Source of the DNA: Escherichia coli O127:H6 str. E2348/69
Lineage (GTDB): Bacteria; Pseudomonadota; Gammaproteobacteria; Enterobacterales; Enterobacteriaceae
Assembly: GCF_000026545.1 (NCBI RefSeq)
Contig: NC_011601.1
DNA length: 64,000 nt
Strand: one strand, 5' to 3'
Both the position numbers and the translations under genes were made by a program. Positions 6,335-48,697 of the stretch are shown here, piece by piece. The notes below the pieces were generated by a model. It was not told the origin of the DNA. It saw nothing but the letters and a program-made list of their open reading frames with translations, and made no database searches. Each line of letters starts with the position of its first letter. Position 1 is the stretch's first letter.

Positions 6335-6335
6335 C

Positions 6336-7244: not shown

Positions 7245-7495
7245 AACCGTTCCTTTGCAATACCGCTATTTTCTTGCCATCAGATGTTTCGACTATAGGG
7301 AGCGTAAGAGAACGAATGAAATTACCAATTAGAATGAGTAGTTCCTTAACGGAATAACGATTTGGCAAAGCTAATATCAAAAAGTGCTTAAGGCACCGGA
7401 TTTCGGGCGTTTAGGAAGATTTGAAATTGTTTTAGCGCAGCGGCAGTTTCATACTATGGCGGTAAAAAAATTTGCATGGTATTTAAGGACTCACT

Positions 7496-8533: not shown

Positions 8534-8593
8534 TGGGTTTGAAATGATTACTCCCTTGCCTGCAGGAAATCAATGCCACCAGAAACAGAGTAT

Positions 8594-8657
8594 AAAAAAG
8601 GGTGCAGGAGACCAAACCATCACAATTCAGTACGCGGGGTTTTACCCCGCGTGGTGG
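8594..8657 (-). other. hok mRNA 3' UTR: stem-loop plus putative fbi (fold-back) element ending in a U-run
   Basis: Minus strand after the hok stop reads CCACCACGCGGGGTAAAACCCCGCGTAC...GGTCTCCTGCACCCTTTTTT. There is a hairpin CGCGGGG/CCCCGCG (8633-8651). The 3' segment GGUCUCCUGCACCC can pair with the proposed 5' end GGGUGCUUGAGGCU at 10053-10040 (6 bp + 2-nt bulge + 6 bp, including G-U pairs). Confidence 0.55.
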
Positions 8658-8810
8658 CTACTTCTTCGATTCGTAAGCGAGAACTGCCTTAAACTCCATA
8701 CCACGTTCTCTGATACTCAACTCACACAACGAGTCGCCTACCATCAACGTGAATCCCAGTACTGTACAACACAGTACGATGATTGCCACAAGGGCATATT
8801 TTGTCAGCAT
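8658..8810 (-). CDS. Hok/Gef-family type I toxin (50 aa); coding frame intact but separated from its own SD, leader and promoter by the IS
   Basis: My own translation of the minus strand is [50 protein letters not shown]. It has an N-terminal TM helix, the conserved SLCE cysteine motif and a C-terminal AYES-K tail as in Hok of plasmid R1, and closely resembles K-12 HokE as I recall it. It falls below the 60-aa cutoff of the ORF track. Confidence 0.85.
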
Positions 8811-8813
8811 GTC

Positions 8814-9909
8814 TGTGTAAGTTCACAGAGATATTGCAATTGCCTCCGGATAAGTAAGGGGAGATTGCACTATGCAAATGCAGCATCTGATGGTTGGCTA
8901 TCCTAAGTACTACCAAACGGCCGATTATGCGTTGAGGCTTTCAGTGATGGCTGATATAGCAACAATGAGAATGAAGGCTCTGCACTTCTGGGATAAACAC
9001 GGTATTTCTGCAGCTTCTGAAGCCTTTGGCGTGTCCTGCCGCACGCTTTACTGGTGGCGTCAGTTACTGAACAAGGAAGGACCTGAGGGGCTAATCCCGC
9101 ACAGTAAGGCACCTCTGGTGCGACGAAAAAAACACTGGCATCCCGATGTGCTGAAAGAGATTCGACGCCTCAGGACAGAGCTGCCGAACCTCGGTAAAGA
9201 GCAGATTTTTGTTCGCCTGAAGCCCTGGTGCGAACAGCGCTATCTGGCCTGTCCGAGTGTTTCCACCATCGGCAGAATGATCGCTGCCGCACATGATAAA
9301 ATGCGGATGATACCTGTGCGTCTGGGATCGCGGGGGAAGGCACTGCTTGTCAAAAAGCGGTCTGCCAAACCCCGCAGGCCAAAGCACTACCGCCCGGTAA
9401 AGACAGGTGAGCTCATTGGGATGGACGCCATTGAGCTCAGAATGGGCGAACTGCGTCGCTATGTCATCACCATGATCGACGAATGCAGCAATTACGCGCT
9501 GGCGCTGGCTGTGCCGTCACTCAACAGTGATATCGTCAATCACTTCTTCAGCCGCGCAGCCCGGTTGTTCCCGGTCGGTATCAGCCAGATAATCACAGAT
9601 AACGGAAAAGAGTTCCTGGGAAACTTCGACAAAACGCTGCAGGAAGCCGCTATCAAACACCTCTGGACCTATCCCTACACGCCAAAAATGAACGCTATCT
9701 GTGAACGTTTTAACCGGACGTTAAGAGAGCAGTTTATTGAATTTAATGAGATTTTACTCTTTGAAGATCTGGCGCTATTTAACCAGAAGCTGGCGGAATA
9801 TCTGGTGCTGTATAACAGCAAAAGACCCCACAAGGCGCTCGCACTAATGACGCCCGTGGAATATATTTTAAAAGAGAATAAAAATTGCAATATGTGGTGG
9901 ACCCATACA
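8814..9909 (+). mobile_element. ~1.1 kb insertion sequence, single-ORF DDE (rve) transposase, IS481-like (IS3 superfamily)
   Basis: Imperfect terminal inverted repeats: left TGTGTAAGTTCACAGAGATATTGCAATT, and reverse complement of the right end TGTATGGGTCCACCACATATTGCAATT (TGT...ACA ends, about 20 of 28 matches, one indel). Flanked by a 5-bp direct repeat ATGTC (8809-8813 and 9910-9914). Confidence 0.8.
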
Positions 9910-10146
9910 ATGTCTTGCCTCCTTGCAAAGAAGAGACTAACATCCGAATTGCTTAGGTTCGAACGTAGGCCTCAGGTTGATAGAAATATCGCCTGGGGCT
10001 TTTGTCCATCTGGAACCTCGCGAATGCTTAACGCCAGACAGCCTCAAGCACCCAACGCCATTCTATACCTGTTAATTTTCCCTGCGATGTTCACCTTTAA
10101 ATGCCGGAATGCTGCTCGCAAAATAAAAACGCCCCATCATTTCTGA
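8872..10146 (+). CDS. IS transposase (HTH + rve/DDE integrase core); the ORF runs through the right IR, and the last ~79 codons are read-through into flanking DNA
   Basis: 424-aa ORF with SD AAGGGGAG 9 nt upstream. It has an N-terminal HTH region (GVSCRTLYWWRQ) and a DDE triad context (IGMDAIE ... ITDNGKEF ... YTPKMNAICERFNRTLREQF). No stop codon occurs before the IS end at 9909. Confidence 0.8.
   Translation: MQMQHLMVGYPKYYQTADYALRLSVMADIATMRMKALHFWDKHGISAASEAFGVSCRTLYWWRQLLNKEGPEGLIPHSKAPLVRRKKHWHPDVLKEIRRLRTELPNLGKEQIFVRLKPWCEQRYLACPSVSTIGRMIAAAHDKMRMIPVRLGSRGKALLVKKRSAKPRRPKHYRPVKTGELIGMDAIELRMGELRRYVITMIDECSNYALALAVPSLNSDIVNHFFSRAARLFPVGISQIITDNGKEFLGNFDKTLQEAAIKHLWTYPYTPKMNAICERFNRTLREQFIEFNEILLFEDLALFNQKLAEYLVLYNSKRPHKALALMTPVEYILKENKNCNMWWTHTMSCLLAKKRLTSELLRFERRPQVDRNIAWGFCPSGTSRMLNARQPQAPNAILYLLIFPAMFTFKCRNAARKIKTPHHF
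9915..10065 (-). promoter_or_regulatory. orphaned hok promoter and leader (tac 5' end, small mok-like leader ORFs, Sok target, hok SD)
   Basis: Minus strand reads TAGAAT (-10, 10065-10060), then 6 nt, then GGGTGCTTGAGGCTGTCTGG (compare the R1 hok 5' end GGCGCTTGAGGCTTTCTG as I recall it) ... CTTTGCAAGGAGGCAAGACAT. Joining across one copy of the ATGTC duplication restores AAGGAGGCAAGACATGCTGACA, that is SD plus 6 nt plus the hok ATG. Confidence 0.65.
9950..10004 (+). ncRNA. candidate Sok-like antisense RNA (~55-65 nt)
   Basis: Plus-strand promoter with -35 TTGCCT (9915-9920), 17-nt spacer and -10 TAACAT (9938-9943). Terminator hairpin GCCUCAGG/CCUGGGGC (9969-9999) followed by UUUU (10000-10003). 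The RNA is fully antisense to the hok leader. The ends are predicted, not measured. Confidence 0.5.
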
Positions 10147-10157
10147 CAGAGGCGTTT
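10127..10157 (-). terminator. intrinsic terminator downstream of cysH
   Basis: Minus strand reads AAACGCC-17 nt loop-GGCGTTT followed by TTATTTT, 18 nt after the cysH stop. Confidence 0.55.
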
Positions 10158-10174
10158 AATTTATCCGGCAATAT

Positions 10175-10909
10175 TTACCCTTCGTGTAATCCACATTCCC
10201 TTTTTAAGCCAAAGAAACGCGTTTCTTCTTCCGCCATGCCGGGTTCCCATTTACGGGTTGTATGGGTATCGCCCACCGATAAATATCCTTCATCCCATAA
10301 TGGGTGATATTTCAGGCCATGTTTTTGCAGGTACTGATAAATAGTTCGGTTATCCCAGTCGATAATCGGCAGCACTTTAAATACGCCACGCTGAATTGCC
10401 AGCACCGGTAAATTGGCGCGACTGCCGGATTGTTCACGGCGCAGGCCAGCAAACCAGGTTTGCGCATTCAGTTCTTTCAGCGCCCGGTTCATCGGTTCGA
10501 CTTTGTTGATGTCATTGTACTTTTCAATGCCTTCAACGCCCTGCTCCCACAGTTTGCCGTAGCGTGCTTCCTGCCAGGCGGCGCTTTCGGTAGCACGATA
10601 CACTTTCAGGTTGAGCTTGAGTTTGTCCGTTAACTCGTCAATAAAGCGGTAGGTTTCCGGGAACAGATAGCCGGTATCGGTGAGGATCACTGGAATATCC
10701 GGGCGAATCTGATTCACCAGATGCAGACTCACCGCCGCCTGAATGCCAAAGCTGGAAGAAAGTACATATTCACCGGGCAGATTATCCAGCGCCCAGGCTA
10801 CGCGGCCTTCAGCGTCCAGTTTTTCCAGTTGGGCGTTAGTTTCCGCCAGCGCCAGAATCCGGTCTACCTTTGGCAGTTCGTTCAGGGCGTTTAGATCGAG
10901 TTTGGACAT
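10175..10909 (-). CDS. cysH: phosphoadenosine phosphosulfate (PAPS) reductase
   Basis: Track ORF 10175..11062. The conserved start [21 protein letters not shown] is Met52 of that ORF, giving 244 aa. It has the C-terminal ECGLH motif. The upstream extension runs through a REP element and is not coding. Confidence 0.95.
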
Positions 10910-10930
10910 AAGTTCCTCACTGTTTGCCTT

Positions 10931-10966
10931 GCCTGATGCAACGCTTACACGTCTTATCAGGCCTAC
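10931..10966. repeat. REP (repetitive extragenic palindrome) between cysI and cysH
   Basis: GCCTGATGCAACGCTTACACGTCTTATCAGGCCTAC, the canonical REP consensus (GCCTGATGCG...CTTATCAGGCCTAC). Confidence 0.85.
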
Positions 10967-10982
10967 AAGACCAGGCTGATGG

Positions 10983-12695
10983 TTAATCCCACAAATCGCG
11001 CGCCGGATCGAGCACCGGGCGAATGATGCCCGCACGCACCGTAAAGTCGCCGAAGCCTTCACCCACTTCGCGCTCTTTCGCCCAGCGCCCTATCAGTTCA
11101 TCAAGCGACGCCAGGATTTCCGACTCGGTGATGTTTTCTTTATACATCCGTGGGATACGTGTCCCAATGCGGTTGCCGCCAAGATGCAGGTTGTAGCGAC
11201 CCGGCGCTTTCCCCACCAGACCCACTTCCGCCAGCATCGCGCGACCACAACCGTTCGGGCAGCCTGTTACACGCATCACGATATGCTCATCGCTGACACC
11301 ATGTTTCGCCATTAAATTATCGATGTTGTCGATAAAAGACGGCAGGAAACGCTCCGCTTCCGCCATCGCCAGCGGGCAAGTCGGGAATGACACGCAGGCC
11401 ATTGAGTTTTCACGCTGCGGCGTGACGGCATTCATTAACCCGCTCTCTTTGGCGATCTTCTCGATCTTCGCTTTCTCGCTTTCCGGCACGCCGGCGATGA
11501 TCAGATTCTGGTTCGCCGTAATGCGGAAATCACCTTTGTGGATCTTCGCGATCTCCAGCAGGCCAGTTTTCAGCGGGCGCCCCGGATAATCAAGAATTCG
11601 ACCATTTTCGATAAACAGCGTCAGGTGCCAGTTATCATCAATGCCCTTAACCCAGCCAATACGATCGCCGCGTCCGGTAAACTCATACGGGCGAATCGGC
11701 TCGAATTTGATCCCCGCGCGACGCTCAACTTCCGCTTTAAACGTCTCAACCCCCACGCGCTCCAGCGTGTATTTGGTTTTGGCATTTTTACGATCGGTTC
11801 GGTTACCCCAGTCACGCTGAGTCGTCACGACGGCTTCTGCCACCGCCAGCGTATGCTCCAGCGGCAGATAACCAAACTCACTCGCCGTGCGGGCGTAGGT
11901 TTTCTTGTTGCCGTGCTCGATGGAAAGCCCACCGCCCACCAGCAGGTTAAAGCCCACCAGCTTGCCGTTTTCGGCGATCGCCACGAAGTTCATGTCGTTG
12001 GCGTGCAGATCGATATCGTTCTGCGGCGGGATCACTACCGTGGTTTTGAACTTACGCGGCAAATAAGTCTGACCGAGGATCGGTTCTTCATCGGTGGTGG
12101 CGACTTTTTCCTGATCGAGCCAGATCTCCGCATACGCGCGGGTACGCGGCAGCAGATGTTCAGAAATTTTCTTCGCCCATTCATATGCTTCCGCATGCAG
12201 CTGCGACTCGTAAGGGTTCGAGGTGCAGAGTACGTTACGGTTCATGTCGTTGGCGGTCGCCAGCGCATCAAGACCGACCGAGTGCAGCATCTGATGCACC
12301 GGTTTGACGTTCTTTTTCAGAATGCCGTGGAACTGGAATGTCTGGCGGTTGGTCAGGCGAATGCTGCCATAGATGGTGTTTTCACCGGCAAATTTGTCGA
12401 TCGCCTGCCACTGTTTAGTGGTAATCACCCCACCCGGCAGACGACAGCGAAGCAGCATCGCGTGACGTGGTTCCAGCTTCTGTTCAGCACGTTCGGCGCG
12501 GATGTCGCGGTCATCCTGCTGATACATGCCGTGGAAGCGGATCAACAGGAAGTTATCACCCTTAAAGCCGCCGGTCAGACCGTCATTTAAATCTTCCGCA
12601 ATGGTGCCGCGCAGGTAGTTGCTTTCAAGCTTCATGCGCTCGGCGTCTGTCAGTTTTCCTTCGACCACTAAAGGTCCTGGATGTTTTTCGCTCAT
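10983..12695 (-). CDS. cysI: sulfite reductase hemoprotein beta subunit
   Basis: 570-aa ORF of the siroheme/4Fe-4S nitrite-sulfite reductase family ([16 protein letters not shown] ... TGCPNGCGR). Confidence 0.97.
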
Positions 12696-14494
12696 TAGTA
12701 GACATCTCGCTGATAACGGCGCTCTACGCGCAGCTCACTTAAAAATTCATCCGCCGCTTCGGTGTCCATGCCACCAAATTCGGCAATCACTTCCAGAAGT
12801 GCCTGCTCAACGTCTTTCGCCATGCGATTAGCGTCGCCGCAGACATAAATGTGGGCACCGTCATTGATCCAGCGCCACAGCTCTGCGCCCTGTTCGCGCA
12901 GTTTGTCTTGTACGTAAATTTTTTCTTTTTGATCGCGCGACCAGGCGAGATCGATGCGCGTCAGCACGCCTTCTTTGACGTAACGCTGCCATTCCACCTG
13001 GTAGAGGAAATCTTCCGTAAAGTGTGGGTTGCCAAAGAATAGCCAGTTTTTACCCGGCGCTTCGTCGGCAGCACGCTGCTGCATAAAGGCACGGAACGGC
13101 GCGATGCCGGTGCCAGGGCCAATCATGATCACCGGGGTTTCCGGATTGGTTGGCAGGCGGAAGTTGTCGTTATGTTCGATAAAGACGCGGACTTCACCCT
13201 CTTCTTCCACACGATCCGCGAGGAAGCTGGAGGCACCACCGGCACGGGCGCGGCCTTCCACGTCGCAACGCACCACACCAACGGTAACGTGCACTTCGTT
13301 CTCGACTTCCGCCTGCGAGGAGGCGATGGAATACAGGCGCGGGGTCAGCGGGCGCAGCAGATTAATCAGCGCTTCGGCATCCAGTTGCGCCGGAGAGAAA
13401 CGCACCATGTCGACAATCGGCGTCGTCGCGGCGTAATGCTGTAATTTCGCTTTATCGCCCACCAGCGGCAGCAGCGTTTCGCTGCGGGTAAGCGTGGCAT
13501 AGTTCTCAACAATGTTGGCGGTGTTAACGGTCAGTTCGAAGTGCCACTGTAGCGCTTCGTTCAGAGGCAACGTTTTGCCCTCGACGGTGACAGGTTCATC
13601 GCCTTTCAGCCACAGCAGTTCGACAAGTTCTTTCACCAGTGCCGGATCGTTCTGATACCAGACGCCCAGCGCGTCACCCGGCTGGTAACGCAGGCCAGAG
13701 TCACCTAAGTCAATTTCAATGTGACGAACGTCTTTTTCAGAGTTACGCCCGGTAATTTTCTGGTTAACAGAGAGGCTCGCCACCAGCGGCGCGTCTTTGC
13801 TATACGGGCTGGTGTGGATTTCATTTACCGTGCCAGTAGCGACGGATTGCGAAGGTGCCGCGACAGGCGCACGCGATTTAAGCGCATCAACCACGCGGGC
13901 GCGCCACTCGCTGGCAGCAGCCTGGTATTCAACATCGGCATCGACACGGTCGAGCAGGCGTTCACCGCCCAGTTCCGCCAGCTTACTGTCAAAATCTTTC
14001 CCGGACTGGCAGAAAAATTCATAAGAGCTATCGCCGAGGCTAAACACGGCAAACGCGGTGTTTTCCAGCTTTGACGCTTTTTTGGAGAACAGGAACTTAT
14101 GCAGCGCGACGGCTTCTTCCGGCGGTTCCCCTTCCCCTTGCGTTGACGTCACCACGATAAGCAGTTTTTCGCTGGCGATTTGTTTGAATTTATAGTCACC
14201 CGCGTTCACCAGCTTAACGTTCAGTTTTGCCGCTAATAAATCATCGCGTAATGCTTCAGCAACCCGGCGCGCATTGCCGGTTTGCGAGGCGGAGATAATA
14301 GTTATACCCGGCATTTCTGCGGCGGGCGCTGGCGTCGCTGCAAGCGCAGCAGGCTGCTGGTTGAGCACGCCCCAGAAATAGCCAGAAACCCAGGCAAGCA
14401 GGGTAGGAGTTAAATCGGTCGTGGCCGCCTGAAGGCGTGCCAGTTGCTCCGGGTTCAACGGAAGCAACGCGGAAGGTGGGACCTGTGTCGTCAT
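12695..14494 (-). CDS. cysJ: sulfite reductase flavoprotein alpha subunit
   Basis: 599-aa ORF with flavodoxin-like and FAD/NADPH (CPR-like) domains ([20 protein letters not shown]). Confidence 0.97.
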
Positions 14495-14809
14495 GCGTTG
14501 TTATGTTCCAGTAAGCAAAGCTGTTTCTGCGCCCTGTCAGCGCCCATAAAACAGAAGAGAAGGTAAGGTTAACGGGGTGAACGGTGTGGATTAAAGACGG
14601 GATAGCGATAACTAATAACCAAATCGACTAACCTGTTTTAGCAATAGTCTTTAACAACAAAATAGATTAACCAACCCAATGAAAAACAAATGAATATTGC
14701 CCATCAATAAGATAAATCAGCGATTTTGCGCAACAAAGTCGTTTTAGATAATGCGAAAAAACAGCCTTTCCGGTACTCTACGGCGGTTTTATCGTCATGT
14801 AGAGAAATT

Positions 14810-15175
14810 ATGATGTCCACCACGTTATTTAAAGATTTCACCTTCGAAGCCGCTCACCGCTTGCCGCATGTCCCACAAGGGCATAAATGTGGTCGCCTGC
14901 ACGGGCATTCCTTTATGGTGCGACTGGAAATTACCGGGGAAGTCGATCCGCATACGGGCTGGATTATCGATTTCGCTGAACTGAAAGCGGCGTTTAAACC
15001 AACTTATGAGCGCCTCGATCACCATTATCTCAATGATATTCCAGGTCTGGAAAACCCAACCAGCGAAGTTTTAGCAAAATGGATTTGGGATCAGGTTAAA
15101 CCCGTTGTGCCGCTGTTAAGTGCGGTGATGGTAAAAGAAACCTGCACCGCAGGTTGTATCTATCGCGGCGAATGA
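14810..15175 (+). CDS. queD: 6-carboxy-5,6,7,8-tetrahydropterin synthase
   Basis: Track ORF 14726..15175. The K-12-like start [22 protein letters not shown] is at Met29, giving 121 aa. It has the His/Cys catalytic pattern [11 protein letters not shown]. Confidence 0.92.
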
Positions 15176-24490: not shown

Positions 24491-25969
24491 ATGTCGAAAA
24501 AATACATCATAGGGATTGATGGCGGAAGTCAGAGCACAAAAGTGGTGATGTACGATCTGGAAGGTAATGTGGTTTGCGAAGGCAAAGGCTTATTGCAGCC
24601 GATGCACACGCCAGATGCCGATACCGCAGAACATCCTGACGACGATTTATGGGCATCACTATGTTTTGCCAGTCACGATTTGATGAGCCAGTTTGCCGGA
24701 AATAAAGAAGATATTGTCGGCATTGGCCTGGGCTCAATCCGTTGCTGCCGTGCGTTATTGAAAGCCGATGGTACGCCAGCCGCGCCGTTGATTAGCTGGC
24801 AGGATGCACGCGTTACACGCCCTTACGAACACACTAATCCTGACGTGGCCTATGTCACCTCTTTTTCGGGTTATCTGACACATCGCTTAACCGGCGAGTT
24901 TAAAGACAATATCGCCAACTATTTTGGTCAGTGGCCGGTGGATTATAAGAGCTGGGCATGGAGCGAAAATGCCGCGGTAATGGAAAAGTTTAATATCCCC
25001 CGCCAGATGCTTTTTGACGTGCAAATGCCAGGCACTGTTCTTGGGCATATCACACCACAAGCTGCGCTGGCGACACATTTCCCGGCTGGGCTGCCGGTTG
25101 TTTGTACCACCAGTGATAAACCGGTAGAAGCTCTGGGAGCCGGGTTACTGGATGATGAAACGGCGGTAATTTCTCTTGGCACCTACATCGCGTTGATGAT
25201 GAACGGCAAAGCACTGCCGAAAGATCCGGTCGCGTACTGGCCGATTATGTCTTCTATTCCGCAAACATTGCTGTATGAAGGTTACGGTATTCGCAAAGGC
25301 ATGTGGACGGTGAGCTGGCTGCGCGACATGTTAGGCGAGTCGTTAATTCAGGATGCCAAAGCACAGGATCTTTCACCGGAAGATTTGCTCAACAAAAAAG
25401 CGTCTTGCGTGCCACCTGGTTGTAATGGGCTGATGACGGTGCTGGACTGGCTGACCAATCCGTGGGAACCGTACAAACGCGGAATTATGATCGGCTTTGA
25501 TTCCAGCATGGATTACGCATGGATATATCGTTCGATACTGGAAAGCGTGGCGCTGACGCTGAAGAACAATTACGACAATATGTGTAATGAAATGAATCAC
25601 TTTGCAAAGCATGTGATCATTACTGGCGGCGGTTCGAACAGCGATCTGTTTATGCAGATTTTTGCCGACGTGTTCAACCTTCCGGCACGCCGTAACGCCA
25701 TTAATGGTTGTGCAAGTCTGGGGGCAGCGATCAATACGGCGGTAGGTCTGGGGCTATACCCGGATTACGCAACGGCTGTCGACAAAATGGTTCGCGTGAA
25801 AGATATCTTTATGCCTGTTGAGAGCAACGCCAAACGCTACGACGCGATGAATAAAGGCATTTTCAAAGACCTAACCAAACACACTGATGTGATCCTGAAA
25901 AAATCGTATGAAGTGATGCATGGGGAATTGGGGAATGCGGATTCGATCCAGAGCTGGTCGAATGCGTAA
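24491..25969 (+). CDS. ygcE: FGGY-family carbohydrate kinase
   Basis: 492-aa ORF with the N-terminal IGIDGGSQSTK motif typical of FGGY kinases. Confidence 0.9.
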   Translation: MSKKYIIGIDGGSQSTKVVMYDLEGNVVCEGKGLLQPMHTPDADTAEHPDDDLWASLCFASHDLMSQFAGNKEDIVGIGLGSIRCCRALLKADGTPAAPLISWQDARVTRPYEHTNPDVAYVTSFSGYLTHRLTGEFKDNIANYFGQWPVDYKSWAWSENAAVMEKFNIPRQMLFDVQMPGTVLGHITPQAALATHFPAGLPVVCTTSDKPVEALGAGLLDDETAVISLGTYIALMMNGKALPKDPVAYWPIMSSIPQTLLYEGYGIRKGMWTVSWLRDMLGESLIQDAKAQDLSPEDLLNKKASCVPPGCNGLMTVLDWLTNPWEPYKRGIMIGFDSSMDYAWIYRSILESVALTLKNNYDNMCNEMNHFAKHVIITGGGSNSDLFMQIFADVFNLPARRNAINGCASLGAAINTAVGLGLYPDYATAVDKMVRVKDIFMPVESNAKRYDAMNKGIFKDLTKHTDVILKKSYEVMHGELGNADSIQSWSNA

Positions 25970-26088
25970 GTGAGATAAACAGTGCCGGGTAGATGATTAA
26001 TCCCGGCATATTCACGTTTCCACCACAAAATACCGGGTAACCACTGCTGAATATTGTTCTCTCCTGAGTAGCGTTTATGCTTTAATTG

Positions 26089-26102
26089 CTAAACCGATTT
26101 AA
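26089..26102. promoter_or_regulatory. ScrR-type (LacI-family) operator upstream of scrK
   Basis: CTAAACCGATTTAA. Its reverse complement differs at 1 of 14 positions from the 27105 copy. It lies 30 nt upstream of the scrK ATG. Confidence 0.6.
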
Positions 26103-26133
26103 TTAGTTTAGCAATTAGTATATTGGAGCCTTT

Positions 26134-27054
26134 ATGAGCGCAAGAGTATGGGTACTCGGTGATGCGGTTGTTGATTTATTACCCGAAAGCCAGGGGAGAC
26201 TACTACAGTGTCCTGGCGGGGCGCCTGCTAATGTTGCAGTCGGTATCGCAAGGCTGGGGGGGAAAAGTGCCTTTATTGGCAAAGTTGGCGATGATCCTTT
26301 CGGTCGCTTTATGTATCAGACACTGAGTACAGAAAATGTTGATACACGTTATATGTCTCTTGATCCTCAACAACGCACCTCAATTGTGGCTGTAGGACTT
26401 GATGAGCAAGGAGAAAGAAACTTTACCTTTATGGTACGCCCAAGTGCCGATCTTTTTTTACAACCTGATGACCTTCCTACATTTGGGCCGGGTGAATGGC
26501 TCCATCTTTGTTCCATTGCGCTCAGTGCAGAACCTTCCCGAAGTACCGCATTTCTGGCTATGGAGAAAATACGTCAGGCTGGCGGAAACATCAGTTTTGA
26601 TCCCAATATCCGCAGCGATCTCTGGCAGAGTGAAGCGCTATTAAGAAAATACCTTGATCGCGCGCTTTCGCTGGCGAATATCGCTAAATTGTCCGAAGAA
26701 GAGTTGCTATTCATCAGTGGCGAAAGCCAGGTTCAGCAAGGCGCATATTCATTAGTACAACGTTATTCGTTGACTTTATTGCTTATCACACAAGGAAAAA
26801 ATGGCGTACTTGTGTATTTTCAGGGGCAGTTTATCCACTATCCCGCCAAACCTGTTTCTGTCGTCGATACGACCGGGGCAGGAGATGCTTTTGTCGCTGG
26901 ATTACTTGCAGGTCTGGCTGATTCTGGAATACCAACAAATACCAGACAGCTTGAACGAATCATTGCACAAGCTCAGATTTGTGGTGCTCTGGCGACCACG
27001 GCTAAAGGCGCGATGACCGCCTTACCCCGACAACACGATCTCCCTTCACAATAG
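26134..27054 (+). CDS. scrK: fructokinase (PfkB family)
   Basis: 306-aa ORF with WVLGDAVVDLLPE...LLQCPGGAPANVA and DTTGAGDAF motifs. Clearly homologous to, but diverged from, the Klebsiella/pUR400 ScrK I remember. Confidence 0.9.
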   Translation: MSARVWVLGDAVVDLLPESQGRLLQCPGGAPANVAVGIARLGGKSAFIGKVGDDPFGRFMYQTLSTENVDTRYMSLDPQQRTSIVAVGLDEQGERNFTFMVRPSADLFLQPDDLPTFGPGEWLHLCSIALSAEPSRSTAFLAMEKIRQAGGNISFDPNIRSDLWQSEALLRKYLDRALSLANIAKLSEEELLFISGESQVQQGAYSLVQRYSLTLLLITQGKNGVLVYFQGQFIHYPAKPVSVVDTTGAGDAFVAGLLAGLADSGIPTNTRQLERIIAQAQICGALATTAKGAMTALPRQHDLPSQ

Positions 27055-27104
27055 TGATCCTGCTGTTGTATCTGTAACCCGATTTGTCGTGCCTGTCACA
27101 TTTA

Positions 27105-27118
27105 CTAAATCGGTTTAG
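27105..27118. promoter_or_regulatory. ScrR-type operator, distal copy upstream of scrY
   Basis: CTAAATCGGTTTAG, a near-perfect 14-bp palindrome. Confidence 0.6.
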
Positions 27119-27163
27119 CGAAAATAATTGCTCTGGCTAAAAAGTCAGCTTTATTATCAACAC

Positions 27164-27177
27164 CTAAACCGGTTTAG
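27164..27177. promoter_or_regulatory. ScrR-type operator overlapping the scrY promoter
   Basis: CTAAACCGGTTTAG, a perfect 14-bp palindrome. A perfect TATAAT hexamer lies at 27193-27198. Confidence 0.65.
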
Positions 27178-27197
27178 CATTTTAGCAATTTTTATAA

Positions 27198-28739
<1,542 letters not shown>

Positions 28740-28799
28740 TACCAGACAGCCTCACGGATGTGAGGCTTTTACTGAAATAACAATGAATTAGAGGGTTAT

Positions 28800-30170
28800 A
28801 TGGATTTCGATAAAATCGCCCAATCGTTGCTTCCTTTATTAGGTGGTAAGGAGAACATCGCCAGTGCAGCACATTGCGCCACTCGCCTACGGCTGGTACT
28901 GGTTGACGACACACTTGCCGATCAACATGCCATTGGCCAGATTGATGGAGTGAAAGGTTGTTTTCGTAATTCAGGGCAAATGCAAATCATCTTTGGCACC
29001 GGCGTGGTTAATAAAGTCTATGCTGCCTTTATTCAGGTTGCAGGTATTAGCGAATCCAGTAAAGCAGATACCGCTCGACTCGCCGCTCAAAAACTCAATC
29101 CTTTTCAGCGAATAGCACGGCTACTTTCTAATATTTTTGTCCCCATCATTCCAGCCATTGTTGCTTCTGGTTTATTAATGGGGCTCCTGGGAATGGTGAA
29201 AACATATGGCTGGGTGAATGCCGATAATGCGATTTATATCCTGCTGGATATGTGCAGTTCAGCCGCATTTATTATTCTCCCCATCCTTATTGGCTTTACT
29301 GCTGCTCGTGAATTTGGTGGAAATCCTTATCTTGGCGCGACATTAGGAGGGATTCTGACTCACCCGGCACTCACAAATGCCTGGGGCGTTGCTGCGGGAT
29401 TTCAGACAATGAACTTCTTCGGTTTTGAAATCGCCATGATTGGCTATCAGGGAACGGTTTTCCCCGTGCTTCTGGCAGTATGGTTTATGAGCATAGTGGA
29501 AAAACAGTTACGCAGGTTTATCCCTGATGCTCTGGATCTCATTCTGACGCCATTTCTGACTGTCGTCATTTCTGGCTTTATCGCTCTTTTGATTATTGGT
29601 CCGGCAGGACGAGCGTTAGGTGACGGTATCTCTTTCGTTCTCAGCACGCTGATTGCACACGCAGGCTGGTTAGCAGGGTTGTTATTCGGCGGGCTATATT
29701 CAGCGATTGTTATTACGGGTATTCATCATAGCTTCCACGCAATTGAAGCAGGACTTTTAGGTAACCCTGCAATCGGTGTTAATTTCCTGCTGCCTATTTG
29801 GGCAATGGCAAACGTTGCGCAAGGAGGTGCATGTCTGGCGGTATGGTTTAAAACCAAAGATACAAAAATTAAAGCAATCACCCTACCCTCGGCCTTTTCC
29901 GCAATGTTAGGGATTACTGAAGCCGCTATTTTTGGTATCAACCTTCGTTTTGTTAAACCTTTTATTGCGGCCTTAATTGGTGGCGCTGCCGGCGGTGCCT
30001 GGGTTGTCTCTGTTCACGTTTATATGACTGCCGTTGGTCTGACCGCAATACCCGGCATGGCAATCGTTCAGCCAACATCGTTGGTTAATTATATTATTGG
30101 AATGGTGATTGCTTTCGCTGTCGCTTTTAGCCTCTCTTTATTACTCAAATACAAAACGGACGAGGAGTAA
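28800..30170 (+). CDS. scrA: PTS sucrose-specific EIIBC component
   Basis: 456-aa ORF with EIIB active-site context AAHCATRLRL, followed by a polytopic EIIC domain. Confidence 0.92.
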   Translation: MDFDKIAQSLLPLLGGKENIASAAHCATRLRLVLVDDTLADQHAIGQIDGVKGCFRNSGQMQIIFGTGVVNKVYAAFIQVAGISESSKADTARLAAQKLNPFQRIARLLSNIFVPIIPAIVASGLLMGLLGMVKTYGWVNADNAIYILLDMCSSAAFIILPILIGFTAAREFGGNPYLGATLGGILTHPALTNAWGVAAGFQTMNFFGFEIAMIGYQGTVFPVLLAVWFMSIVEKQLRRFIPDALDLILTPFLTVVISGFIALLIIGPAGRALGDGISFVLSTLIAHAGWLAGLLFGGLYSAIVITGIHHSFHAIEAGLLGNPAIGVNFLLPIWAMANVAQGGACLAVWFKTKDTKIKAITLPSAFSAMLGITEAAIFGINLRFVKPFIAALIGGAAGGAWVVSVHVYMTAVGLTAIPGMAIVQPTSLVNYIIGMVIAFAVAFSLSLLLKYKTDEE

Positions 30171-31579
30171 TGTCGATGCCTTCACAAATGCCCGCGATTT
30201 TACAGGCAGTGATGAAAGGTCAGTCCAAAGCACTGGCAGATGCCCACTATCCTTGTTGGCATCTCGCTCCAGTCACCGGACTAATGAACGATCCAAATGG
30301 CTTTTGTTGGTCTGGAGGCCGCTATCATCTGTTTTATCAATGGAATCCACTGGCTTGTGATCATAAGTACAAATGTTGGGGGCACTGGAGTTCGACGGAT
30401 TTATTGCACTGGCAGCATGAACCATTAGCGCTAATGCCCGATAAAGAGTACGACCGTAATGGTTGTTACTCAGGAAGCGCGGTTAATAATCAGGGCGTTC
30501 TCACACTTTGCTATACCGGTAATGTTAAGTTTGATGATGGCAGCAGAACGGCATGGCAATGCCTGGCCACCGAAAATAACCAGGGCGGGTTTGATAAACT
30601 AGGCCCTGTCATACCGTTACCTGATGGTTACACCGGACATGTTCGTGATCCAAAAGTCTGGAAGCACAACAGCCAATGGTACATGGTGCTTGGCGCGCAA
30701 GATAAAGAGAAACGGGGGAAAGTGCTGCTGTATTCCTCTGTCGATCTCTATACCTGGTCTTTTCATGGAGAAATTGCTGGTAACGGTCTGAATGAAATAG
30801 ATAACGCAGGATACATGTGGGAATGTCCTGATCTTTTCGCCCTTGATGGTGAATACATTCTCCTCTGTTGCCCCCAGGGAATGGTGCGCGAACATGAGCG
30901 CTATCTGAATACTTATCCCTGCGCCTGGCTACATGGACAGTTTGATTACGAGACAGGCAAATTTACGCATGGCGCTTTCTCAGAGCTGGATGCGGGATTT
31001 GAATTCTATGCACCACAGACGATGGAAGCCCCGGACGGGCGACGATTGCTGGTCGGCTGGATGGGGGTTCCTGATGGCGAAGAGATGTTGCAGCCAACCA
31101 GAAAGCATCATTGGCAGCATCAAATGACCTGTTTTCGCGAACTCTCATTCCAGAAGGGAAAATTGTTTCAGATGCCAATCAGGGAACTCGCGCAACTGCG
31201 TGAAGCTGAACACTTCTGGCAAGGAAAAGCGGATCATGCGCCGCATGTCGAAATTGAACGCCTGGAAATGGACATCATTCCGTCGGGTGAGCTGTATCTG
31301 AATTTTGGCAATGCGCTGGCACTGCATCTTAATGACGATGGTATTCAACTACAGAGGAGAAGCCTTGCAGGGCAAGAGAAACTAACTCGTTACTGGCGAG
31401 GAAGCGTAACGTCACTGAAGATTCTCTGTGACAGTTCCAGCGTAGAGATATTCATCAATAATGGTGAAGGTGTAATGAGTAATCGTTATTTTCCCCATCA
31501 TCCAGCTTCGCTGATATTACAGGGTGAGTCTGACGTCACGTTACGCTACTGGTCGCTACGCGCCTGCATGGTAGAATGA
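30170..31579 (+). CDS. scrB: sucrose-6-phosphate hydrolase (GH32)
   Basis: 469-aa ORF with GH32 catalytic motifs MNDPNG, RDPKV and WECPD. The ATG overlaps the scrA stop. Confidence 0.92.
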
Positions 31580-31604
31580 GGGTTTTGAATTACGGATCCT
31601 CGTC

Positions 31605-32612
31605 GTGAGAAAAACCAAACGCGTTACTATTAAAGACATTGCTGAACTGGCGGGAGTGTCGAAAGCAACCGCCAGTCTGGTTCTCAATGGTCGTGGCAAA
31701 GAGTTACGTGTTGCGCAGGAAACGCGTGAGCGTGTGCTGAGTATTGCCCAACAGCAGCATTATCAGCCCAGCATTCATGCCCGCTCATTACGGGACAACC
31801 GCAGTCATACCATTGGTCTCGTCGTTCCTGAAATCACTAACTACGGATTTGCAGTATTTTCCCATGAACTGGAAACATTGTGTCGGGAAGCGGGCGTCCA
31901 GCTCCTCATATCCTGTACTGATGAAAATCCTTCACAGGAAACAATGGTGGTGAACAATATGATTGCCCGCCAGGTTGATGGGTTAATCGTCGCATCCAGT
32001 ATGCTGCATGATAATGACTATCAAAAACTTAGCGAGCAATTACCTGTTGTGTTGTTCGATCGCCACATGAACGGCAGTACATTGCCATTGGTCATTACTG
32101 ACTCTGTTTCTCCCACCGCCGCTCTGGTGGCAGATATTGCACGGAGTCACCCGGATGAATTCTATTTTCTGGGCGGACAACCCCGTTTGTCACCGACTCG
32201 CGATCGACTGGAAGGATTTACACAAGGCTTGCAGCAAGCCGGAGTAACGCTACAACCTGAATGGATTATTCACGGTAATTATCATCCGAGCTCAGGCTAT
32301 GAAATGTTTGCCGCGCTATGCGCTCGTTTAGGACGTCCCCCTAAAGCCTTATTCACTGCCGCTTGTGGATTACTGGAAGGCGTTCTGCGCTATATGAGCC
32401 AATATAATTTACTCGACAGTAAAATACACCTGGCGAGTTTTGATGATCATTACTTGTATGATTCACTTTCGGTAAGAATCGACACAATACAACAGGATAA
32501 TCGCCAACTTGCTTTTCACTGCTTTGAACTTATTTCGCAACTGATTGAAGGTGAAACGCCATCCCCATTACAGCGTTATCTTCCTGCCAGTCTACAAAAA
32601 CGCTACCGATAA
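31605..32612 (+). CDS. scrR: LacI-family sucrose operon repressor
   Basis: 335-aa ORF with a GTG start and N-terminal [26 protein letters not shown]. Confidence 0.9.
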
Positions 32613-32629
32613 TCCCGTCACTATCTTGC

Positions 32630-32659
32630 ATCGCCCCTGTAAAACGGGGCGATTATTTT
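32630..32659 (+). terminator. intrinsic terminator after scrR
   Basis: ATCGCCCC-tgtaaaac-GGGGCGAT followed by TATTTT. Confidence 0.65.
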
Positions 32660-32696
32660 CATCCTGAACGTTAAATATTAATGATGAATAATCAAA

Positions 32697-33368
32697 TCAG
32701 GCAATATTCAAATATTTATGTGTCTGCATCGACAAACGCCAGTTGCGCGCAATGCAGGTATCGATACATAAACGCGTAGCATCTTCCTTCTGGCTAATTG
32801 GCTGAAGTGCAATGACTCGCGGTTTATCATCGGTCAGCGTCGCAAGCAATTCATCCAGTGCTTCGATATCACGTACGCGTCCAACTGGGTGTTTGATTTC
32901 GTTAGCTCGCTCCAGGGCTTGCGACAATACTTCATAGCCGCCGCGCATGTTCAGCTTTGGCGATACGGTAACCCAGGTATTCGGTGTGCAGCGTACCTCA
33001 TGAGTACCACTGGTTTCGATCTGGCAGCTAAAACCGTTCTTTTCGAGCAGGTCAGTCAGTGGCAGCAAATCATGAATGCAAGGCTCACCACCCGTAATCA
33101 CCACGTGACGCGCGGTGTATCCCTGACGGCCAATGACAGCCAGCAAATCTTCACTGCTCGCCGCCCCCCACTTATCACTCTCTTTGGTCTTCGCCAGAAT
33201 GCTGAAAAGGGAGACTTCCCGATCCTCAAGCTTTTCCCAGGTGTGTTTGGTGTCGCACCAGGCACAGCCAACCGGACATCCCTGTAAACGAATAAAAATG
33301 GCGGGGACGCCGGTAAAGTAACCCTCACCTTGCAGGGTCTGGAACATCTCGTTAATCGGGTACTGCAT
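32697..33368 (-). CDS. queE: 7-carboxy-7-deazaguanine synthase (radical SAM)
   Basis: 223-aa ORF with a radical-SAM cluster-binding motif CPVGCAWCDT. Confidence 0.94.
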   Translation of the reverse strand: MQYPINEMFQTLQGEGYFTGVPAIFIRLQGCPVGCAWCDTKHTWEKLEDREVSLFSILAKTKESDKWGAASSEDLLAVIGRQGYTARHVVITGGEPCIHDLLPLTDLLEKNGFSCQIETSGTHEVRCTPNTWVTVSPKLNMRGGYEVLSQALERANEIKHPVGRVRDIEALDELLATLTDDKPRVIALQPISQKEDATRLCIDTCIARNWRLSMQTHKYLNIA

Positions 33369-33661
33369 AGCATTCTCTGTGAAGTGGATAATTGTTAATT
33401 ATTGCAGATCTCGCCGCAATATTCATGCTTTATTAACATTCTGTTACAGGCAGGTTTAAAGAAAAAAGCGAAACATATCGTTAATAATAAAAGGGAGTGA
33501 CATATTATGTCAGAAAGAAATAAAGTAAAGGGATTTTATCATGTCAAAAACATTCACCATAATTATATTTATCTTTTCTGTATTCATTTTTAATTATAAC
33601 GAATCTCAAATTACCGATACCGCCGTCAATTTATTTATCCAGCTTTAATAGGACATTTATA

Positions 33662-34534
33662 ATGCGCTATTTCATACTAATATTCACACTCGTGTGTTCC
33701 TTTGTTGCAGCCCAACCAACTATTGTCCCACAATTACAGCAACAAGTTACGGATCTTACGAGTAGCTTAAACTCACAAGAAAAGAAAGAACTGACGCACA
33801 AGTTAGAATCTATTTTCAATAATACCCAAGTACAAATTGCTGTATTAATTATTCCCACAACCAAAGACGAGACAATTGAACAATATGCTGCAAGGGTTTT
33901 TGACAATTGGCGTTTAGGAGATGCCAAACGCAATGATGGGATACTGATCATTGTTGCCTGGTCGGATCGCACTGTCCGCATCCAGGTAGGTTATGGGCTG
34001 GAAGAAAAGGTAACCGATGCTCTGGCTGGCAATATCATCCGTAGCATCATGATACCCGCATTTAAACAACAAAAATTAGCTAAGGGATTAGAGTTAGCTA
34101 TAATCGCTTTGAATAACCAACTCACTTCACAACACCAATATTCGTCTAATCCTTCAGAAAGTGAATCAGCGTCTTCCAGTGATCATTACTACTTTGCTAT
34201 TTTTTGGGTATTTGCAGTGATGTTCTTCCCTTTCTGGTTTTTTCATCAAGGCAATAATTTTTGTCGGGCATTTAAAAGCAGTGTTTGTATTTCAACAGTC
34301 TATCTTATAGATTTATTCCTGTTCTCCGATCAAACTTTTTCCATTGCTGTATTTTCCTTCTTTTTTGCTTTCACCACCATTATGGTCTTTACCTGTTTAT
34401 GTGTACTTCAGAAAAAAGCATCTGGTAGAAGTTATCATTCAGACAACAGCGGTTCCGGTGGTGGCTCAAGTGGCGGCGGATTTAGCGGCGGGGGCGGTTC
34501 TTCTGGCGGTGGCGGCGCGTCCGGTCGCTGGTAA
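33662..34534 (+). CDS. ygcG: TPM-domain membrane protein with glycine-rich C-terminus
   Basis: 290-aa ORF with a signal peptide, a TPM/phosphatase-like domain, TM segments and a [27 protein letters not shown] tail. Confidence 0.88.
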
Positions 34535-45995: not shown

Positions 45996-47336
45996 TTAAC
46001 GCACCATGCACGGACGCTTGTTATCGAACGTCCAGCCGGGGATCAGGTACTGCATTCCCATCGCATCGTCACGCGCGCCAAGCCCGTGTTTCTGATACAG
46101 CTCGTGCGCTTTCATCACTTGATCCATATCGATTTCTACACCCAGCCCCGGTTTTTCTGGCACCTGAACCAGACCGCCTTTGATCTCTAACGGTTCTTTG
46201 GTCAGACGCTGATTGCCTTCCTGCCAGATCCAGTGCGTATCAATAGCAGTAATTTTACCCGGTGCAGCAGCGGCTACATGGGTAAACATCGCCAGGGAAA
46301 TATCGAAGTGGTTGTTAGAGTGTGAACCCCAGGTCAGGCCAAATTCATGGCACATTTGCGCCACACGTACCGAACCTTGCATCGTCCAGAAATGCGGATC
46401 CGCCAGCGGGATATCAACGGATTGTAACGAGAGCGTATGGCCCATCTGCCGCCAGTCGGTGGCGATCATATTGGTTGCGGTCGGCAGGCCAGTCGCGCGA
46501 CGGAACTCTGCCATCACTTCACGCCCGGAGAAACCTTGCTCCGCACCACACGGATCTTCTGCATAAGCCAGCGAACCTTTCAGGTATTTACCAATTTTAA
46601 TCGCTTCGTTCAGCGACCAGGCACCGTTAGGATCGAGGGTAATACGCGCCTGTGGGAAGCGTTGCGCCAGTGCCACAATAGATTCTGCTTCTTCTTCCCC
46701 GGCCAGTACACCACCCTTCAGTTTGAAATCGTTGAAGCCATATTTTTCATATGCCGCTTCCGCCAGGCGCACCACCGCATCCGGCGTCATCGCTTCTTCG
46801 TGACGCAGGCGATACCAGTCACATTTATCATCCGGCTGGCTTTGATACGGCAGCGGTGTGGCTTTGCGATTACCGACGAAGAACAGATAACCGAGCATTT
46901 CGACTTCGCTACGCTGTTGACCATCGCCCAGCAGCGATGCCACGTTAACCCCCAGATGCTGCCCCAGCAGATCCAGCATTGCCGCTTCTATCCCGGTAAC
47001 TACATGAATAGTGGTCCGCAAATCAAATGTCTGCAAACCGCGCCCGCCGGCATCACGATCGGCAAATGTATTACGCACCAGCGTCAGAACGTTTTTGTAT
47101 TCACCCAGCGTTTTACCCACCACCAGCGGAATCGCATCTTCCAGCGTTTTACGGATTTTCTCGCCGCCGGGAATTTCCCCTACCCCAGTGTGACCAGAAT
47201 TATCTTTGATAATCACAATATTACGCGTGAAGAACGGTGCGTGTGCACCACTCAGATTCATCAGCATACTGTCATGGCCCGCCACCGGGATGACCTGCAT
47301 TTCAGTAACAACAGGCGTCGTAAATTGAGAACTCAT
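45996..47336 (-). CDS. gudD: D-glucarate dehydratase
   Basis: Track ORF 45996..47360. The start is taken at [23 protein letters not shown] (Met9), giving 446 aa. Enolase superfamily. Confidence 0.95.
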
Positions 47337-47356
47337 ATTTATGTCCTTTTTCAAAA

Positions 47357-48697
47357 TCAATGACGGCCGAAAACGGGACGTTTACGGTCAAAGGTCCAGC
47401 CGGGGATCAGGTACTGCATCGGGCCCGCGTCGTTACGCGCACCGCCAGGCAGACGTTTATAGGCCTCATGCGCCTTTTGTACCTGCTCCCAGTCCAGTTC
47501 CACGCCCAGACCGGGCGCATCAGGAACGGCAATTTTTCCGTTTTTAATCTCCAGCGGATTTTGGGTCAGGCGACAATCGCCCTCCTGCCAAATCCAGTGG
47601 GTATCGATAGCGGTAGGATTACCCGGTGCCGCCGCACCCACATGGGTAAACATCGCCAGAGAGATATCAAAGTGGTTATTGGAATGGCAGCCCCAGGTCA
47701 GCCCCCAGTCGTCGCAAAGCTGCGCTACGCGGACTGCACCGGAAAGCGTCCAGAAGTGCGGATCGGCAAGTGGAATATCTACCGCATTGAGCATCACCGC
47801 ATGACCCATTTCGCGCCAGTTGGTGGCGATCATGTTGGTCGCGACGGGCAAGCCGGTCGCCCGTCGAAACTCCGCCATCACTTCACGACCGGAGAAACCC
47901 TGCTCAGCGCCGCACGGGTCTTCCGCATAGGTAAGAACATCATTCAGCCCTTTGCACAGAGAAATGGCTTCATCAAGCAGCCAGGCACCATTGGGATCAA
48001 CGGTAATCCGCGCATCAGGGAAGCGTTTCTTCAATGCACGAACAGTGTCGATTTCTTGCTCGCCAGGTAACACGCCACCCTTAAGTTTGAAATCTTTAAA
48101 GCCATAGCGATCCTGTGAGGCTTCCGCCAGACGCACAACGGCTTCGCTGTTCATCGCTTTCTGATGCCGCAACTGATACCACTCATGGTTGCCCGGCGTA
48201 TTTTCCAGATAAGGAAGATCGGTTTTGGTCCGATCACCGATATAAAACAGATAACCGAGAACGGTAATAGCATCACGTTGCTTGCCTGGCCCTAACAGTT
48301 CGCAGACCGGAACATTCAGCGCCTGACCTAACAGGTCAAGCAAGGCGGCTTCCAGCGCCGCCACGGCATTAACGCGCAATTCAAAAGTCCAGGCACCTTT
48401 GCCGAAGGCATCAAAATCGGCTGCCTGATTACCTTTATGCACCTGCTGAACCACTTTATTCAGGCGCGCAACTTCCTGGCCCAGCACCATCGGAATAGCC
48501 TCGACCAGTGTTTGATAAATCACCTCTCCGCCCGGCGCTTCACCAATGCCGGTATGCCCGGCATTATCGGTGAGTACCACAATATTGCGGGTGAAATATG
48601 CGTTATGTGCACCACCAATATTAAGCAACATGCTGTCATGTCCGGCGACCGGAATGACTTTCATATCAGTAATAACAGGACTGGATTGTGTCGTCAT
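47357..48697 (-). CDS. gudX: glucarate dehydratase-related protein
   Basis: 446-aa paralogue of gudD ([22 protein letters not shown]). Confidence 0.94.

Follow-up and report, generated by a model that had tools for sequence, protein, structure and literature searches.

Between the core genes ygcE and queE, the chromosome of enteropathogenic Escherichia coli (EPEC) E2348/69 carries a block of 6.7 kb that is assigned here, from its sequence, to a phosphotransferase system (PTS)-type sucrose regulon, scrKYABR (25975-32694 of the 64 kb stretch of DNA that was analyzed, hereafter the window). The reading preferred in this analysis, and held with high confidence, is that this native and PTS-dependent regulon replaced a CRISPR region, CRISPR2.2/2.3, in one ancient event, and that secondary copies of it arose later. 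The locus itself is already known and has been in print since 2007. What is new here are the base-level breakpoints, the count of carriers (840 of 5,426 complete genomes) with invariant junctions, the contrast in diversity between the block and its flanks, and the link to copies of the block on a genomic island and on plasmids.

Results

Gene content of the scr block

The window belongs to E2348/69, and positions 25000-33500 match NZ_CP059840.2 at 100% over their full length. Five intact and co-oriented genes, scrK, scrY, scrA, scrB, and scrR, all on the + strand, are the sole genes between ygcE and queE in both the list of open reading frames (ORFs) and the annotation, and their assignment to a PTS-type scrKYABR regulon follows from the agreement of family scores, motifs, gene order, and conserved operators. 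Protein families were assigned using NCBIfam profiles with curated cut-offs, which four of the five Scr proteins passed. ScrK (26134-27054, 306 aa), an ATP-dependent fructokinase of the PfkB family with the motifs GGAPAN and DTTGAGD, scored 511 bits against the fructokinase equivalog NF006957 (cut-off 450). ScrA (28800-30170, 456 aa), a sucrose PTS enzyme IIBC (EIIBC) with the phosphorylation-site motif CATRLR at residues 26-31, scored 650 bits against the sucrose EIIBC profile TIGR01996 (cut-off 559), and the same NCBIfam search returned no match to a IIA domain in this protein. ScrB (30170-31579, 469 aa), a sucrose-6-phosphate hydrolase of glycoside hydrolase family GH32, scored 548 bits against TIGR01322 (cut-off 356) and contains the catalytic motifs NDPNG, RDP, and ECP at 40, 159, and 218, respectively, with PF00251 and PF08244 on record for an identical protein; the start codon of its gene overlaps the scrA stop codon by one base. 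ScrR (31605-32612, 335 aa, GTG start), a LacI/FruR-type repressor, scored 463 bits against the fructose/sucrose repressor profile TIGR02417 (cut-off 390).

The fifth protein, the sucrose-specific outer-membrane porin ScrY (27222-28739, 505 aa), matched LamB profiles in NCBIfam below threshold only. It combines a signal peptide, a coiled-coil-like N-terminal extension of ~70 residues, and a LamB-type barrel, and its residues 93-505 align end to end with all 413 residues of the sucrose porin structure 1A0S (E = 1.8e-226). Inspection of the sequence showed that residues 23-92 form a heptad-like extension rich in Ala, Glu, and Gln, which is absent from the crystallised 1A0S chain. The original prediction, a reading of the bare nucleotide letters and their translated ORFs, had described five co-oriented genes with these family signatures, together with the motifs CATRLR, NDPNG, RDP, and EC, and both the genes and the motifs were recovered as described. 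It should be noted that the RefSeq/PGAP label for the scrK product is 'aminoimidazole riboside kinase' (in a few genomes 'cscK fructokinase'), a name that looks misleading given the NF006957 score and the setting in a sucrose operon.

Operators and terminator

Palindromic sequences are found in both promoter regions of the block. The scrK promoter/operator region (26021-26133, + strand) contains the near-perfect palindrome TAAACCGATTTA at 26090-26101, 33 bp 5' of the scrK start and within a larger inverted repeat (26083-26117). The scrK-scrY spacer (27055-27221, + strand), the putative scrYAB promoter region, contains a promoter-like site at 27101-27128 as well as palindromes at 27106-27117 (TAAACCGATTTA) and 27165-27176 (TAAACCGGTTTA) and a weaker copy at 27075-27086. 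These two regions hold all but one of the copies of TAAACCGATTTA with 0-1 mismatches in the 64 kb window, and at a tolerance of two mismatches or fewer the window contains 14 matches, compared to 4.9 ± 2.3 in shuffles.

The core motif AAAYCGRTTT was then surveyed in the scr loci of other genera, where 71 loci with adjacent scrK and scrY were available from 80 fetched. All 71 loci have the motif within the scrK-scrY spacer, 55 of them in duplicate, and 44 have it 5' of scrK. Its density in these promoter regions is 6.5 per kb versus 0.01 per kb elsewhere in the same loci. Because the motif is conserved in intergenic regions that otherwise cannot be aligned, the palindromes are predicted to be ScrR operators. 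At the other end of the block, the sequence 3' of scrR (32630-32653) resembles an intrinsic terminator, with a hairpin (ATCGCCCC...GGGGCGAT) and a T-run after it.

Breakpoints and the replaced CRISPR region

Alignment to scr-less strains placed the left breakpoint at 25974/25975, 5 bp past the ygcE stop codon, and the right breakpoint at 32694/32695, 2 bp beyond the queE stop codon; both fall inside the brackets originally suggested for them (25970-26088 and 32613-32696). On the left, the core flank is ygcE (24491-25969, + strand), an FGGY-family carbohydrate kinase, with homology to scr-less E. coli extending up to 25974, and on the right it is queE (ygcF; 32697-33368, - strand), with homology resuming at 32695. 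The outermost parts of the block are two junction segments, both restricted to genomes with scr at the ygcE-queE locus: a left segment of 46 bp (25975-26020, + strand), the hairpin of which (GCCGGG...CCCGGC) is probably the ygcE terminator, and a right segment of 82 bp (32613-32694, + strand) that begins with ATCGCCCCTGTAAAACGGGGCGATTATTTTCATCC. A 2025 paper labels ygcE a 'sucrose kinase gene', a label for which no basis was seen.

The same breakpoints enclose 466 bp in the scr-less avian pathogenic E. coli (APEC) strain E12053, where an AT-rich leader accompanies two repeats of the type I-E CRISPR. In the K-12-type strain HB101, the ygcE-queE spacer is 1.37 kb long and contains a degenerate two-repeat array, a seven-repeat array (nine repeats in all), and an AT-rich leader, such that the original prediction, in which K-12 has only a short CRISPR array between these genes, was approximately right. 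The 29-nt CRISPR repeat GTTTATCCCCGCTGGCGCGGGGAAC has no match at three or fewer mismatches in the whole window. On these alignments, the 6.7 kb block stands in place of the entire CRISPR2.2/2.3 spacer (~0.47-1.4 kb), which makes the event a replacement and not a simple insertion; the insertion between ygcE and queE that had been proposed was correctly located at the CRISPR site and has to be restated as a replacement.

Among the traits of a classical integrase/tRNA island, a deviation in base composition is the only one found at the block. At 46.8% GC, the block falls within the lowest 5% of all 6.7 kb windows; its 10 kb flanks have 51.0% and 49.8%, and the window as a whole has 50.5%. GC at third codon positions (GC3) is likewise lower in the scr genes (0.38-0.48) than in ygcE and queE (0.55-0.56), and the AT-richness that the original prediction had judged by eye is therefore confirmed by calculation. 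No tRNA or tmRNA genes were found in the whole 64 kb window, and no direct repeat of the kind expected from att sites or from a target-site duplication joins the two junctions, the sequences of which were also inspected. No integrase gene is annotated beside the block, the nearest candidate being an 'integrase core' pseudogene of the insertion sequence (IS) type ~16 kb away, between iap and cysH. The absence of repeats, integrase, tRNA, and long direct repeats at the boundaries had been noted beforehand and was upheld within the window.

Missing from the iap-cysH interval (window 7496-10909) are the type I-E cas operon, in its entirety, and the array CRISPR2.1. Between iap (7496-8533) and cysH (10175-10909) there is just a Hok/Gef toxin gene of the hok family (8658-8810) and an IS remnant (~8815-9909) with the 'integrase core' pseudogene (8872-9906). 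The remnant is absent from the scr-less APEC E12053.

Distribution and age in E. coli

Across a collection of 5,426 complete E. coli genomes, scrB of this lineage (at least 95% identity) is present in 987, and the full ygcE-scr-queE arrangement in exactly 840 (about one in six); of the other blocks, about 110 are located in a genomic island and about 38 on plasmids. Both junction segments, 46 bp on the left and 82 bp on the right, were found in exactly 840 genomes of the collection and in no others. The 840 carriers share one type of junction, which is indicative of a single founding event. Other carriers at the ygcE-queE locus are 98.9-100% identical over 8.5 kb. The literature places scr at this locus mainly in phylogroups B2 and F. 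In E. albertii, ~12% of strains are reported to be scrA+.

Pairwise differences among four scr+ strains amount to 0.5-1.1% in the block, 2.1-3.8% in the adjoining part of ygcE, and 2.7-5.5% in queE, and the density of mismatches shifts right at the junctions. Additionally, the scr allele is found beside both versions of the queE-eno segment, one with ygcG only and the other with LemA and three TPM-domain genes. Because the block is less diverse than its flanks and the allele occurs with both versions of queE-eno, the block would be younger than the species-wide diversity of the flanks, which would since have been reshuffled by homologous recombination.

The direction of the replacement is set by the presence of CRISPR2 at this locus in both Salmonella and Escherichia (PMC2886076), for which reason the CRISPR state is ancestral at ygcE-queE. 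The opposite polarity, an ancestral scr that was replaced by the CRISPR2.2/2.3 arrays in most lineages, would fit a block that is not marked by mobility genes, tRNA, or repeats, the failure to find a donor anywhere, and the description of the locus as 'native' to B2 by Stephens et al. (PMC11251922). Nevertheless, this polarity is very improbable: it is at odds with the occupation of the site in Salmonella, with the clearly lower GC and GC3 of the block relative to the flanks, with a diversity among carriers that is 2-5 times lower in the block than in its immediate flanks, and with the confinement of scr at this locus to 840 of the 5,426 genomes and a single type of junction.

The neighboring core genes are themselves unusual. 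ygcE and queE are unusually divergent, at 95.4% and 94.4% identity to K-12-type HB101 and 94.5-97.9% among scr+ strains, such that these core genes diverge more between strains than the accessory scr block lying between them. The queE-eno interval (window 33369-34534) contains ygcG only, with or without the small yqcG, in E2348/69, AZ146, and K-12-type strains, and a LemA-family gene with three TPM-domain genes in APEC E12053, LS45, and MRY15-117; GC falls to 0.36-0.40 at 33250-34500. Further away, gudX and gudD (46024-48679) cross-match at ~68% DNA identity, as expected for adjacent paralogues of the enolase superfamily.

Predicted function of the regulon

The mechanism of action was deduced from the protein families and from what is established for the systems of pUR400 and Klebsiella. 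By analogy with these, sucrose would cross the outer membrane via the ScrY porin and be imported by ScrA, with phosphorylation to sucrose-6-phosphate. As ScrA is without a IIA domain, it would depend for its phosphate on the general PTS proteins and EIIA-Glc (Crr). ScrB would then split sucrose-6-phosphate into glucose-6-phosphate and fructose, and the fructose would be phosphorylated by ScrK. Expression is expected to be repressed by ScrR through the AAAYCGRTTT-type palindromes, one before scrK and two or three before scrY, until a sugar-derived inducer relieves the repression, and the terminator after scrR would end the transcription unit.

Published phenotypes are in line with such a function, as most scr+ E. 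coli isolates grow fast on sucrose and the cloned scr locus confers sucrose growth on K-12 (PMC11251922). It is conceivable that the genes are cryptic or non-functional in E2348/69, a silent remnant, and a minority of scr+ isolates that are sucrose-negative (Suc-) or slow on sucrose (PMC11251922), along with a phenotype of E2348/69 that was not found in the literature, could be cited in its favor. A silent locus is nonetheless judged to have a very small chance of being correct. None of the five ORFs is truncated, the catalytic motifs are intact, four of the proteins score above curated cut-offs, the operators and terminator are conserved, and the ScrR and ScrA protein accessions are identical to those of other carriers. 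In addition, 20 of 24 scr+ isolates are sucrose-positive (Suc+), and the Suc- exceptions of known cause have IS3 in scrY (PMC11251922), an insertion absent from scrY of E2348/69.

Secondary copies on an island and on plasmids

The same scr lineage is also found outside of the ygcE-queE locus. In ~109-111 genomes it occurs at 99.0-99.2% identity over 26018/26021-32613 inside a tRNA-Phe genomic island, the content of which includes a tyrosine integrase, a type I restriction system, and an H-NS gene; no transfer genes were seen in the inspected E. coli tRNA-Phe island stretches. Additionally, 22 E. coli plasmids of the IncF type in PLSDB carry the block at 99.0%, and all but one of these (21 of 22) are predicted to be conjugative, for example pJJ1887-5. 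The island copies differ from one another at 0-8 of 6,593 positions, compared to 32-74 among copies at the queE locus, and the island copies are separated from E2348/69 by 55 differences versus 70 for another queE-locus copy. Neither island nor plasmid copies have the terminator segment 3' of scrR (the 82-bp junction segment), and the plasmid copy has an extra 17 bp plus 460 bp of island DNA in common with the island copy. Based on the near-identity of the island copies, the lack of the terminator segment, and the island DNA carried by the plasmid, we infer that the order of events ran from the chromosomal locus to the island and on to the plasmid. The derived copies on the island and the IncF plasmids show that the scr operon is still mobile.

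The shared unit can be described as a 7.07 kb module (scrKYABR with the 17 bp and 460 bp) that is 98.8% identical between the tRNA-Phe island (5985-13058 of the NCTC11121 island stretch) and conjugative IncF plasmids of extraintestinal pathogenic E. coli (ExPEC), where it lies in the leading region (7985-15057 of the pJJ1887-5 stretch). No terminal repeats or adjacent recombinase that would explain the move of this module were found, and comparison of the three contexts revealed no terminal inverted or direct repeats of the block copies. An element end shared across the queE locus, the island, and the plasmid was considered and rejected, as the plasmid merely carries the 17 bp and 460 bp of island DNA. 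The 460 bp of the island has relatives of 82-84% in ~550 scr-less genomes. In one plasmid (H116), IS2 interrupts the scr block.

A known element provides a point of comparison for these copies. CTnscr94 of Salmonella Senftenberg is a conjugative element that carries scr and integrates at tRNA-Phe genes. The secondary E. coli copy resembles it in placing scr in a tRNA-Phe island with a tyrosine integrase, a likeness at the level of description, whereas the locus in the window differs from it in having no tRNA, integrase, or conjugation genes.

Relatives and donor

Relatives of the block were sought with a ScrA search, from which the top 80 species-representative genomes were taken for comparison of identities. 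Among these best 80 genomes, the highest amino acid identity was 93% for ScrA, 87% for ScrR, 83% for ScrY, 73% for ScrK, and 71% for ScrB. Compared to K. pneumoniae ATCC 13883, the values are 91% for ScrA, 85% for ScrR, 74% for ScrY, 69% for ScrK, and 66% for ScrB. In a database of 5.8 billion proteins, the clusters next to the E. coli ScrB cluster are 70-71% identical (Lelliottia, Cedecea, and Salmonella). With the nearest ScrB outside of E. coli at ~70% among 5.8 billion proteins, the conclusion that the block is not a recent transfer from Klebsiella or pUR400 is well supported; the original prediction had reached the same view for Klebsiella from the divergence of ScrK, and the measured ScrK and ScrB identities agree with it. 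The 46-bp segment, the 82-bp segment, and the 460-bp extension of the island had no matches in the 80 scr loci of other genera, from which no donor context was recovered, and no phage records match the block. Together with the lower GC and GC3 of the block, these comparisons suggest a foreign origin from a donor that is unsampled.

A more far-reaching idea, to which only a slim chance is given, is that the scr lineage survives as a relic of enterobacteria that are unsampled or extinct, as could be read from a ScrB with no relative above ~71% and from the two junction segments found nowhere else. Such a relic may have been captured via the CRISPR array or leader, for instance through a Cas- or repeat-dependent break. 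If CRISPR-targeted capture were true, a mechanism would connect the loss of the cas genes in B2 strains to their acquisition of scr, and the two would not have coincided by chance.

Least probable of all is a recent horizontal transfer from Klebsiella, a pUR400-type plasmid, or a CTnscr94-type conjugative element, which would account for the common gene order scrKYABR and for the same lineage occurring in an integrase-bearing tRNA-Phe island and on conjugative IncF plasmids, but which conflicts with the identity of just 66-91% to the K. pneumoniae proteins, with the best non-E. coli ScrB at 70-71%, with the lack of any matching phage record, and with island and plasmid copies that are near-identical to each other, no farther from E2348/69 than other queE-locus copies, and missing the terminator segment after scrR, all of which fit derivatives of the chromosomal allele and not its source.

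Discussion

The history that best accommodates these observations would begin with one ancient illegitimate replacement, in which an AT-richer block of ~6.7 kb from an unsampled enterobacterial donor took over the site between ygcE and queE. The allele would then have persisted and spread among lineages, both vertically and through homologous recombination across ygcE and queE, and the block (26018/26021-32613) would later have been copied into the tRNA-Phe island and thence onto IncF conjugative plasmids.

Several points weigh against this history and against the function assigned to the locus. Neither a donor nor a recombinase was found, and 'illegitimate recombination' is in this sense a default explanation; that the mechanism of insertion is unexplained had been stated in the original prediction and agrees with Stephens et al. 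2024 (PMC11251922). The comparison of diversity between block and flanks uses only four queE-locus copies and three from the island. Delimitation of an import tract was attempted against the scr-less APEC E12053 in 1 kb bins and abandoned, as divergence between E2348/69 and this one scr-less strain is a mosaic (95-99.9% per kb) over the 64 kb in which no boundary can be called. For the need for EIIA-Glc and for the nature of the inducer, the account borrows from the homologous pUR400 and Klebsiella systems. Lastly, some scr+ isolates show slow or no growth on sucrose (PMC11251922), and a search of the accessible literature returned no sucrose phenotype for E2348/69 itself.

The locus described here has been reported on several occasions. 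Treviño-Quintanilla et al. 2007 and Díez-Villaseñor et al. 2010, both as cited in PMC11251922, described this scr locus, and the paper from about 2007 by the former to which the original prediction had pointed exists and, according to the same source, concerns this locus. Touchon and Rocha 2010 described it in strain SMS-3-5. Stephens et al. 2024 (PMC11251922) examined the 'native' scr locus in strain SCU-147 and reported that scr is flanked by neither IS nor transposable elements, and a 2025 survey of uropathogenic E. coli (UPEC) termed this gene set 'Region C', carried by 47% of strains. In print, the locus is described as 6.7 kb in place of about 0.5 kb, with no IS, which agrees with the breakpoints measured here. 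The native B2/F scr locus at queE and that of E2348/69 have the same five genes in the same position in place of CRISPR2.2/2.3, and nothing essential is different in E2348/69.

Comparison to other sucrose systems separates what is shared by the pathway from what is particular to this locus. The scrKYABR regulons of pUR400 (Salmonella) and the K. pneumoniae chromosome have the same gene order, the same five protein families, and an EIIBC without IIA. The N-terminal extension of ScrY is common to them, the barrel of the window ScrY matches the structure of the pUR400 ScrY (1A0S), and the operator palindrome occurs in the same two promoter regions. Conversely, their sequences are strongly diverged from those of the window and their genomic context is different. 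The C. freundii-like scr loci of some phylogroup A and B1 E. coli and of plasmids encode the same pathway in the same gene order, but their DNA is only ~67% identical, they are located elsewhere in the chromosome or on plasmids, and they were clearly transferred recently (PMC11251922). The csc genes (cscRAKB) at argW/dsd likewise provide for sucrose use, and they too form a variable locus, whose fixed chromosomal site is occupied by a different gene set when csc is not there. They differ in their proteins and location, as csc is a non-PTS system with the H+ symporter CscB and the invertase CscA, has no porin, and supports slower growth (PMC11251922).

The additions made here narrow the question of donor and mechanism of entry that was acknowledged by the 2024 paper (PMC11251922). 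For the species, this locus explains why ~18% of complete E. coli genomes are expected to grow fast on sucrose while K-12 is unable to do so; according to the literature, EPEC E2348/69 belongs to this group, as do many ExPEC lineages of B2, for example ST131. The locus is also a textbook example of a single site in the chromosome that can be occupied either by a metabolic operon or by an immune (CRISPR) locus.

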